Shown piece by piece: positions 61,774 to 63,024 of a DNA stretch of 64,000 nt (the first letter of the stretch is position 1; each line of letters starts with the position of its first letter). Both the position numbers and the translations under genes were made by a program. Under the pieces are notes generated by a model, which did no database searches, was not told the origin of the DNA, and worked only from the letters and a program-made list of their open reading frames with translations. Source of the DNA: Candidatus Tenderia sp. (lineage in GTDB: Bacteria > Pseudomonadota > Gammaproteobacteria > Tenderiales > Tenderiaceae). The stretch lies in assembly GCA_031416075.1 (NCBI GenBank), contig JANOSY010000088.1, positions 9,504-73,503 of the forward strand, read 5' to 3'.

Positions 61774-62718
61774 TCACTGCCGCTCTTTCCAGGAGGCTGG
61801 CAATGAACTGATAGTCAGCTCGCGCCCCTCTGAAAGTAGGTACTCCGCAAATACCTTGGCCACCACAGAAGGTTTTTTACCCAAGGGGTAACAGAGATAC
61901 CACTCGTCATCGATAGGGAAGCCCTCTACGTCCAGCACCACTAGCTCCCCCGTATTAATTTCATGCACTAACGCATAAATGGAGAGCATCGAAATACCCA
62001 GCTCACCAATCACTGCCTGCTTGATCGCCTCATTACTTCCCAGCGCCATGCTGACCTTAAAAGCAAAGTCACGACTGCGTCCGAGACGGTCCATCGTCAG
62101 GAAAGTACCGCAGCCAGGCTCCCGTGCCAGGAAGTTTTCATCCGCCAGGGCCTTAAGCGGTATATTCTTTTTTCCTGCCAGCGGGTGGTTTGGAGAGGCA
62201 AGAATCACCAGCGGGTTGGTCAAAAAGGGGATGGCATGAATACCAGGGTCAGACGGCGTCTGGCCAACAATATAGATGTCGTCCAAGTTCTCCGCCAACC
62301 GCTCCAGGATGTGCTGACGATTATTCACAACCAGCGACACATTAATGCCAGGGTATTTTTTATGAAAATCTCCCAGAATGCGCGGTGCAAAATACTCTGT
62401 TGTTGTCACCCCGGAGATGCGCAGATCACCCTGCTTGACACCTTTGATATCTGAAACCGTCATCTGGAACTCATCCAACGCAGTAAACAGCGACTTGCAG
62501 GTTTTAAGCAGCTCCCCCCCTACCGCCGTTAGCGCAATTCGCTTCCCCACCTGCTCGAACAGTGACATACCAACAATACCGGTTAGTTTTTTCATCTGCA
62601 TGGAGAGTGTTGGCTGAGTAAGGTGCAGCTCTTCAGCCGCCACCGTAAAAGAACCGTTTCGCGCTATCGATTCAAATACTTGCAACTGACGAAACGTGGC
62701 ATTACGAATTTTGATCAT
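61774..62718 (-). CDS. LysR-family transcriptional regulator (CbbR/CmpR-like by N-terminal similarity)
   Basis: 314 aa. The HTH region FRQLQVFESIARNGSFTVAAEELHLTQPTLSMQMKKL resembles CbbR-type regulators as I recall them. This is not verifiable here. Confidence 0.85.
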   Translation of the reverse strand: MIKIRNATFRQLQVFESIARNGSFTVAAEELHLTQPTLSMQMKKLTGIVGMSLFEQVGKRIALTAVGGELLKTCKSLFTALDEFQMTVSDIKGVKQGDLRISGVTTTEYFAPRILGDFHKKYPGINVSLVVNNRQHILERLAENLDDIYIVGQTPSDPGIHAIPFLTNPLVILASPNHPLAGKKNIPLKALADENFLAREPGCGTFLTMDRLGRSRDFAFKVSMALGSNEAIKQAVIGELGISMLSIYALVHEINTGELVVLDVEGFPIDDEWYLCYPLGKKPSVVAKVFAEYLLSEGRELTISSLPASWKERQ

Positions 62719-62737
62719 GTTATAAAAACCCTACTAA

Positions 62738-62753
62738 ATAGACTATAATCTAT
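62738..62753. promoter_or_regulatory. Interrupted palindrome ATAG-N8-CTAT (box 1), 20 nt upstream of the LysR start codon
   Basis: The sequence is atagactataatctat. The same ATAG-N8-CTAT architecture recurs at 63009. It is compatible with a LysR-type dyad. Confidence 0.4.
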
Positions 62754-62793
62754 GCTGATTATAAGATATTTTTATTATCATTGATACAAGAAG

Positions 62794-62911
62794 CCGTTCA
62801 TAATCCACTCCAGGTTGATGACATAGTCAACTCTCCTTAGTGCGTACGGGGCCTGCCTTCCTCCCCCCCTCCCCCCCCAATAGGGCAGCCCACCCCGTAC
62901 GCGCCTTTTTT
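62794..62911 (+). ncRNA. Candidate sRNA 1 with C-rich terminator loop (5' end approximate)
   Basis: Possible promoter TTATAA-N17-TGATAC. A small hairpin GTTGA/TCAAC (62814-62831) is followed by a terminator: GCGTACGGGG (62842-62851) pairs with CCCCGTACGC (62893-62902), and an inner CTGCC/GGCAG pair closes a 26-nt loop UUCCUC7UC8AAUAG. Then GCC and TTTTTT. No ORF. Confidence 0.45.
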
Positions 62912-63008
62912 ATTCAATGATACCCGCTTTGAAATCAAAAACATAAAACAGTCAAGCACCCTGCTTCAGACTATCTGAAATAGTGCTCTGCCACGCACCT
63001 ATTGTCTT

Positions 63009-63024
63009 ATAGGTAAACATCTAT
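63009..63024. promoter_or_regulatory. Interrupted palindrome ATAG-N8-CTAT (box 2)
   Basis: The sequence is ataggtaaacatctat. It lies about 97 nt before the second C-loop hairpin, similar to the 103-nt spacing of box 1. Confidence 0.4.

Follow-up and report, generated by a model that had tools for sequence, protein, structure and literature searches.

What does a LysR-type regulator of the CbbR kind control if no RuBisCO operon stands beside it? This question is raised by a 64,000-nucleotide (nt) stretch of DNA from Candidatus Tenderia sp. (assembly GCA_031416075.1, contig JANOSY010000088.1, positions 9,504 to 73,503), here called the window, with positions counted from its first letter. In this window a lysR gene is divergent from two tandem units, each of which ends in a terminator hairpin with a C-rich loop. 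Regulators of the CbbR type are textbook examples of Calvin cycle switches, and the targets known for them in proteobacteria are cbb operons. A sequence-only reading of the window had pointed to an identical ATAG-N8-CTAT dyad in front of each unit and had proposed that these boxes link two small RNAs (sRNAs) to the divergent regulator. Our analysis leads to a similar answer: with a probability of roughly three in four, the two boxes are recognition sites of the divergent LysR protein, which would activate both sRNAs and regulate its own gene.

Both 16-mers are present where they had been reported (62738-62753 and 63009-63024), and box 1 indeed begins 20 nt away from the start codon of lysR (CAT, 62716-62718). 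The nearly equal distances to the two C-loop hairpins hold as well: from the start of the box to the start of the terminator hairpin we counted 102 nt for unit 1 and 97 nt for unit 2 (103 and 97 nt had been claimed). A pattern search detected the exact dyad three times in the window, against 0.32 expected. Two of these sites fall between lysR and sspB, in an AT-rich intergenic region of 636 nt (GC 0.42), for which composition-preserving shuffles give an expectation of 0.016 (P(≥2) = 1.5e-4). Box 1 is kept at the equivalent position in orthologous loci. Box 2 can be compared with locus L002 from the closest other species, whose regulator is 94% identical to the query. There, substitutions, insertions and deletions have scrambled the sequence that separates unit 1 from box 2, and in the box itself the ATAG and CTAT half-sites are retained with an altered N8 interior, which is the footprint expected for a protein-binding dyad. 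Exact boxes were also found at the second units of L002, L004, L081, L007 and L011. The third exact site of the window (ATAGCTCAGCCTCTAT, 60763-60778) overlaps the nusA start codon; it occurs in the same-species contig L001 and is absent from L002. Since it is not conserved there, it is probably a chance match and we rejected it as a regulon member.

For a family-wide view we collected 160 loci encoding a homologue of the regulator, 80 from genomes and 80 from metagenomes, of which 155 comprise at least 100 nt of upstream sequence. In 107 of the 155, an exact dyad is located no more than 100 nt upstream of the regulator start, against 0.47 expected from shuffles, while the background in flanking DNA amounts to 0.0012 per 100 nt. 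It is found in 48 of 58 loci whose regulator is divergent from the RuBisCO gene cbbL, in 49 of 76 other, mostly cyanobacterial loci, and beside 10 of 21 regulators at least 60% identical to the query (15 of 21 if up to one mismatch is allowed). The dyad is hence located upstream of homologous regulators in proteobacteria and cyanobacteria, whatever gene adjoins. In addition, the recognition helix LTQPTxSxQxKxL is nearly invariant among the sRNA-facing, RuBisCO-facing and cyanobacterial homologues. Given the family-wide position of the dyad and the almost invariant helix, we regard ATAG-N8-CTAT as the operator of the whole CbbR/NdhR branch, as far as sequence comparison can assign one. The published consensus site of NdhR (CcmR) is the same ATAG-N8-CTAT, and its targets include ccmR itself and several non-coding RNAs (PMC13249358). 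NdhR is also the closest characterised homologue of our protein: the best solved relative, 5Y2V (E 9e-94, gap-free over 294 residues), is the entry of Synechocystis NdhR/CcmR. The dyad picked out from the bare sequence therefore corresponds to the published operator of the closest homologue, and at sequence level the query locus carries it in exact form beside the start codon of the regulator.

To which group does the regulator itself belong? The protein carries the LysR-type domains PF00126 (HTH_1) and PF03466 (LysR_substrate) and with 314 amino acids comes close to the typical length of about 300; the domain matches are the precomputed ones of the 100%-identical database protein P0001 and of the gene called for the exact protein in L161-L163. 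Its best NCBIfam match is the CbbR equivalog NF045990, yet the score of 235.2 bits stays below the curated cut-off of 450. Furthermore, CbbR is functionally defined by divergence from a RuBisCO (cbb) operon that it also regulates, whereas no cbb gene is present in the neighbourhood of the regulator in the window. The earlier label CbbR-like is thus appropriate for the CbbR/NdhR branch, not for a CbbR equivalog, and we classify the protein accordingly. Clustering by average linkage on identity separated 23 sRNA-facing regulators, 56-100% identical to the query, from 132 others. None of the 23 faces cbbL, whereas 53 of the 132 do, so that all RuBisCO-facing regulators in the clustering fall into the larger group. 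All regulators 60-100% identical to the query with enough upstream sequence face one to three terminator-ended RNAs with C-rich loops and never RuBisCO. The same sRNA-facing arrangement is found in the 56% loci L013 and L020, and the 58% homologue L169 faces RuBisCO. Relatives of the sRNA-facing regulator stem from uncultured Gammaproteobacteria labelled Chromatiaceae, Thiotrichaceae, Ectothiorhodospiraceae or Candidatus Tenderia.

The layout of the promoters tells more about the role of the boxes. We aligned 29 sRNA promoters from 22 loci without a gap over 67 nt, and the information content peaks at ATAG, CTAT, two further sites and the -10 element. If offsets are counted from the box start (0) and transcription is assumed to start about 7 nt after the -10, site 1 (ATAG-N8-CTAT) occupies offsets 0-15 with its centre at about -65.5. 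Site 2, a weaker dyad of the form ATAr-N7-yTAT, follows at offsets 23-38 (centre about -43), site 3, of the ATTTATA type, at 40-48 (about -31), and the -10, CATAnT, at 61-66. Classical LysR-activated divergent promoters combine a recognition site near -65 with one or more activation sites near -35 and overlap the regulator's own promoter. Provided that the conserved CATAnT is the -10, the three site centres would fit these recognition and activation positions. The classical position ascribed to box 1 would hold in this sense: its centre lies at about -66 relative to the predicted start of unit 1, within a conserved succession of site 1, site 2, site 3 and -10 at a fixed distance to each sRNA. 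The -35/-10 pair of unit 1 gives 9 of 12 consensus matches, with a weak -35 match inside a conserved regulator site. For unit 2, the hexamer at the -10 offset reads GATACT, and GATACT or CATACT is also present at the second units of L007, L003 and L004. The RuBisCO-facing promoters of homologues comprise the same blocks at the same spacing. Among the exact boxes in loci of the sRNA-facing clade, 18 of 20 are located at sRNA promoters. In L086 and L137, a gene of 506 amino acids is inserted between lysR and the second sRNA unit (200-475 in L086, 1-200 in L137, both minus strand), and this unit carries an exact box and the full layout about 2 kb from lysR. From these two loci, the box seems to travel with the sRNA and not with lysR.

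The two units are paralogues: over their whole alignment 73% of the columns are identical, and the part between each box and the first hairpin, about 75 nt in both, aligns without a gap. The loop sequences are CCUUCCUCCCCCCCUCCCCCCCC and CCCCUCCCCUCCCCCU. From 13 units we built a covariance model, which matches exclusively beside regulators of the clade and in the window recovers the two known units alone. Across 27 units, all 12 pairs of the terminator stem show compensatory changes and 97.8% of the cells are paired, far above shuffled and slid controls. The 5' hairpin is not conserved in sequence, nor clearly in structure, beyond the closest relatives, and the consensus structure consists of the terminator stem alone. 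No gene lies downstream on the strand of the sRNAs, and no open reading frame (ORF) of at least 40 amino acids was found on this strand inside unit 1. An ORF of 53 amino acids overlapping unit 2 (63106-63267) crosses the terminator of that unit and was taken as spurious. With a predicted promoter of their own, a GC-rich stem followed by a T-run, covariation and no coding potential, both units would qualify as sRNA genes that end in a Rho-independent terminator. At Rfam gathering thresholds, only tRNAs were detected in the whole window, and curated families including sX13 and the alphaproteobacterial C-rich sRNAs gave no match; at a permissive threshold, the region 61300-63500 yielded, besides tRNA, nothing near a gathering score or better than E 0.2.

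Depending on the lineage, an sRNA contains one to three C-rich-loop hairpins, each with a CCCCUCCCUUA-like loop (L012/L168; L005/L006/L009; L007/L165): three loops are present in L012 and L168 (about 100-300 nt upstream of lysR) and two in L005. In L087/L167 (100-350 nt upstream of lysR), the predicted transcript runs for about 250 nt from the conserved promoter before it reaches the C-loop terminator, so that the 5' domain may be much longer in this lineage. The coordinates of all elements of the query locus are given in Table 1.

Table 1. Elements of the lysR-sRNA locus in the window; start, hairpin and promoter assignments are predictions.
Feature	Position	Strand	Description and basis
LysR-type regulator gene	61774-62718	-	314 amino acids; ORF; CbbR/NdhR branch, sRNA-facing clade
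Box 1, ATAGactataatCTAT	62738-62753	no strand	site 1 (recognition site) of unit 1 promoter; read from sequence and pattern search
Candidate lysR -10, TATAAT	62758-62763	-	tentative, read from sequence; no -35 match
Unit 1 site 2, ATAAgatatttTTAT	62761-62775	no strand	ATAr-N7-yTAT, centre about -43; conserved alignment columns 23-38
Unit 1 site 3, TCATTGATA	62778-62786	no strand	overlaps -35 region, centre about -31; conserved columns 40-48
Unit 1 -10, CATAAT	62799-62804	+	consensus promoter scan and conserved columns 61-66
sRNA unit 1	62811-62911	+	predicted start; fold -38 kcal/mol, z -5.4; covariance model 86.5 bits
Unit 1 small 5' hairpin	62813-62832	+	fold
Unit 1 long terminator hairpin	stem 62840-62851 / 62893-62904; loop 62860-62881; T-run 62906-62911	+	C-rich loop
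Box 2, ATAGgtaaacatCTAT	63009-63024	no strand	site 1 of unit 2 promoter; sequence and pattern search
Unit 2 sites 2 and 3, TAAGAAATCAGTGCT...TCATTATAG	63032-63058	no strand	degenerate; family promoter matrix
Unit 2 -10, GATACT	63070-63075	+	offset 61-66 from box, as in unit 1
sRNA unit 2	63082-63174	+	5' hairpin, then terminator hairpin; fold -35.2 kcal/mol, z -4.7; covariance model 74.5 bits
Unit 2 terminator hairpin	stem 63106-63117 / 63154-63165; loop 63128-63144; T-run 63170-63174	+	C-rich loop

How might these elements work together? The LysR protein would bind site 1, the high-affinity recognition site, of both promoters, and a regulator tetramer would bridge site 1 and sites 2/3. Bound in this way, it would activate the two tandem paralogous sRNAs of about 95-100 nt each. 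Occupancy of box 1 would also autoregulate lysR, because transcription of this gene probably starts inside the box (minus-strand TATAAT, 62763-62758). The terminator loops of the sRNAs would act as C-rich, anti-Shine-Dalgarno-like tracts, and the sRNAs would most probably repress the translation of mRNAs with G-rich ribosome-binding sites.

Regarding such partners, RNAduplex predictions of both loops against 40 translation-initiation regions of the window were non-discriminating (median -16 kcal/mol), and the best matches include stem bases. With -26.5 kcal/mol, the ribosome-binding region of infB (56679-59234), AAGAGGGGUAGGCAGCAAUG, ranks near the top of the partners predicted for the loop of unit 2, a hint obtained from 40 genes and without controls. 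In L010 and L029 (about 330-700 nt upstream of lysR), a gene follows the sRNA on the same strand; it starts with MGVLVGRQAPDFTAPAVLG and is preceded by GGAGG, a strong ribosome-binding site. By eye this gene looks peroxiredoxin (AhpC/Prx)-like, and the arrangement is not conserved elsewhere.

Several observations speak against binding and activation as proposed here. The exact box stands beside lysR in just 10 of the 21 loci of the sRNA clade (15 with at most one mismatch). At site 1, within the first 40 nt upstream of lysR, L005, L006 and L009 carry ATTG-N8-CGAT and L010, L029 and L085 carry ATTG/ATTT-N8-CAAT, while the remaining promoter layout is intact in all six. The recognition helix reads SIQLKKL instead of SMQMKKL in L010, L029 and L085, and it is unchanged in L005, L006 and L009, which thus share the helix of the exact-box loci. 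No convincing correlation between half-site and recognition helix emerged from L005, L006, L009, L010 and L029. Unit 2 of the query genome has degenerate sites 2 and 3, and its promoter scores 37.8 with the family matrix against 70.1 for unit 1; in L002, the counterpart scores 61.3 and the sites are intact. The relatives are metagenome-assembled genomes throughout, and the alignment used for covariation was fitted to the covariance model, which favours the structure. Finally, repression is the main mode of action of NdhR, the closest characterised relative, so that the sign of regulation is read solely from the position of the sites and the analogy to cbbL promoters.

This last point leads to the strongest competing explanation, namely that the regulator does bind the boxes but represses in the manner of NdhR. 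The sRNA promoters would then be constitutive, shut by the regulator and a co-repressor at site 1 and at the sites overlapping the -35, and the sRNAs would appear upon de-repression. A predominantly repressing protein with the same motif, the closest solved structure and non-coding RNAs in its regulon lends this idea some weight, as do the overlap of site 3 with the -35 region and the passable -35/-10 pair of unit 1 with its 9 of 12 matches. However, both the positions of the three sites (-65, -43, -31) and the distances between them agree with RuBisCO-facing promoters, on which CbbR is a known activator. Besides, a weak -35 inside a conserved regulator site is typical of activator-dependent LysR promoters. 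We therefore consider repression unlikely.

Far less probable is that the boxes are not sites of this regulator at all. They could represent AT-rich promoter or UP-element sequences, or the operator of an unrelated factor, and be shared through tandem duplication, which would fit the 73% column identity of the paralogous units, the AT-richness of the region (GC 0.42) and a TATAAT-like sequence within box 1. Against this, the half-sites are kept while N8 and flanks vary across loci with 60-94% identical regulators, the dyad precedes 107 of 155 homologous regulator genes regardless of the neighbouring gene, and it equals the published NdhR motif. A pure coincidence, with C-loop hairpins that are ordinary terminators or repeats and not regulated genes, could appeal to the apparent chance match at 60763, but is effectively refuted by the P value of 1.5e-4 for two sites in the intergenic region, the conservation of promoter-plus-RNA units in more than 25 loci and the strong covariation of the stem. 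Activation by the divergent regulator consequently remains our preferred reading, and the claimed link between boxes and regulator would stand on the NdhR consensus motif and on its recurrence upstream of homologous genes, including 48 of the 58 that face cbbL.

If the operator is shared with NdhR, is the signal shared as well? In NdhR, contacts to 2-phosphoglycolate and 2-oxoglutarate are made by T101, T102, H130, N164, R195, T201 and R267 as well as S224, N225, Y105 and a lysine (PMC13249358), the review from which we took the ligand-contact residues (NdhR number = query number minus 4). Eight of ten ligand contacts are conserved in our protein: T101, T102, Y105, N164, R195, T201, S224 and N225 are kept in all groups, and the phosphate-contacting pocket residues of NdhR are retained. 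The two others, R267 and K104, are replaced. The equivalent of R267, which touches the carboxylate of 2-phosphoglycolate in NdhR (PMC13249358), is Asp in 19 of the 23 regulators of the clade, compared with Arg in 52 of 53 RuBisCO-facing regulators and in 65 of 70 others. At position 104, all 23 regulators of the clade carry Glu, versus Lys in 99% of the rest; the identity of K104 with the contact lysine is our own assignment, as the text of the review prints 'Lys10'. Further clade-specific changes are V99G, S199C, H244Y and T245A. Since two basic ligand contacts are charge-reversed (K104E, R267D), the regulator probably senses something other than 2-phosphoglycolate or 2-oxoglutarate.

In comparison with NdhR/CcmR, our locus thus shares the identical dyad, a site upstream of the regulator's own gene, through which NdhR is autoregulated, the occurrence of non-coding RNAs in the regulon and most of the ligand contacts. 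It differs in its proteobacterial host, in lacking adjacent genes of the CO2-concentrating mechanism, in its activator-type site layout, in the two substitutions K104E and R267D, and in its adjoining target, a pair of sRNAs of the trans-acting type. The proteobacterial CbbR-cbbL(S) loci (Acidithiobacillus ferrooxidans, Nitrosomonas, Thiobacillus-type) resemble it in another way: they are divergent, with ATAG-N8-CTAT 7-50 nt from the regulator start, and sites 2 and 3 and the spacing match. The CbbR of A. ferrooxidans was experimentally shown to bind two sites overlapping the divergent promoters. In contrast to these loci, an sRNA instead of RuBisCO is the target here, the protein falls below the CbbR cut-off and clusters apart, and the pocket Arg of 52 of 53 RuBisCO-facing CbbRs is Asp.

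LysR regulators beside sRNAs are not new as such. In E. coli, OxyR-OxyS and GcvA-GcvB are known pairs in which the regulator adjoins the sRNA gene that it directly activates. In Agrobacterium and Brucella, VtlR/LsrB activates the adjacent tandem sibling sRNAs AbcR1/AbcR2 (PMC7486931). All of these have a LysR-type gene beside an sRNA gene, and the VtlR case shares the tandem siblings. However, they belong to other LysR subfamilies with other operators, such as the VtlR box GCAT-N3-TG-N3-T (PMC7486931), other signals and other sRNAs, and show no sequence relationship to our system. The regulon design, which had been called unusual, is therefore unusual for this family, where it defines a separate cluster without a RuBisCO-facing member, but it has precedents in these pairs and in the non-coding RNAs of NdhR.

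The sRNAs have counterparts as well. The C-rich loops of sX13 from Xanthomonas were shown to occlude G-rich ribosome-binding sites, and the same was proposed for the cuckoo family. By definition, a cuckoo RNA comes from Alphaproteobacteria and has two to four hairpins, all of which carry the loop motif CCUCCUCCC (PMC4615179). Neither loop of our units contains an exact CCUCCUCCC, and the host is a gammaproteobacterium. With sX13, cuckoo/CcsR and RsaE/RNAIII-type RNAs, which pair with G-rich ribosome-binding regions, our units share stable hairpins, apical C-runs and a modular hairpin number that varies between lineages; in this modular build they recall the cuckoo RNAs in particular. Unlike these, they have no Rfam match, a CCUCCCCC-like loop in place of the cuckoo motif, the C-rich loop inside the terminator hairpin, and a linked, dedicated regulator of the CbbR/NdhR type.

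A literature search on CbbR plus sRNA revealed no description of this module. While a LysR regulator next to its sRNA target and an NdhR regulon with non-coding RNAs were already known, we found no account of a proteobacterial CbbR/NdhR clade dedicated to sRNAs, of a cbbL-type promoter reused for sRNAs, or of this sRNA family. One might speculate that the clade is a rewired CbbR/NdhR branch, which kept the family operator and layout, lost the RuBisCO target, had two ligand contacts charge-reversed and became dedicated to activating one to three anti-Shine-Dalgarno sRNAs. We put this forward tentatively and would not yet rely on it. If true, a circuit from metabolite to sRNA to translation would form a post-transcriptional arm of autotrophic carbon regulation in uncultured Gammaproteobacteria of the sulfur-oxidiser type. 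Such a layer of carbon or energy regulation would be added in abundant uncultured marine Gammaproteobacteria. It would provide a new family of sRNAs whose loops mimic ribosome-binding sites and for which a regulator and a defined operator are already at hand, and offer a clean natural case of regulator neofunctionalisation: same operator, new target, new ligand. The proposal is testable with purified protein and a two-plasmid reporter, so that the organism need not be cultured.

Some further features of the surroundings are worth recording. A tRNA-Met gene (anticodon CAT, 61538-61614, minus strand) lies directly upstream of rimP-nusA-infB (56679-61306, minus strand), with lysR just upstream on the same strand. 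In sequence this tRNA is very similar to the initiator tRNA of E. coli, and the gene order is that of the metY-rimP-nusA-infB operon of enterobacteria. Between unit 2 and the convergent sspB, a symmetrical A5-stem-T5 hairpin (63323-63349) looks like a bidirectional terminator; in Rfam it gave weak, sub-threshold noise (STnc40). Farther away, no Pfam family was found in an ORF of 812 amino acids (24825-27263, minus strand) or in one of 402 amino acids that neighbours two adjacent giant ORFs. The latter two (32777-39073, plus strand, 2098 amino acids; 39093-44711, plus strand, 1872 amino acids) show scattered domain matches only, namely OmpA, CarboxypepD_reg and DUF11 as well as fn3 and the N-terminal domain of purple acid phosphatase, and probably encode large surface or adhesin-like proteins.

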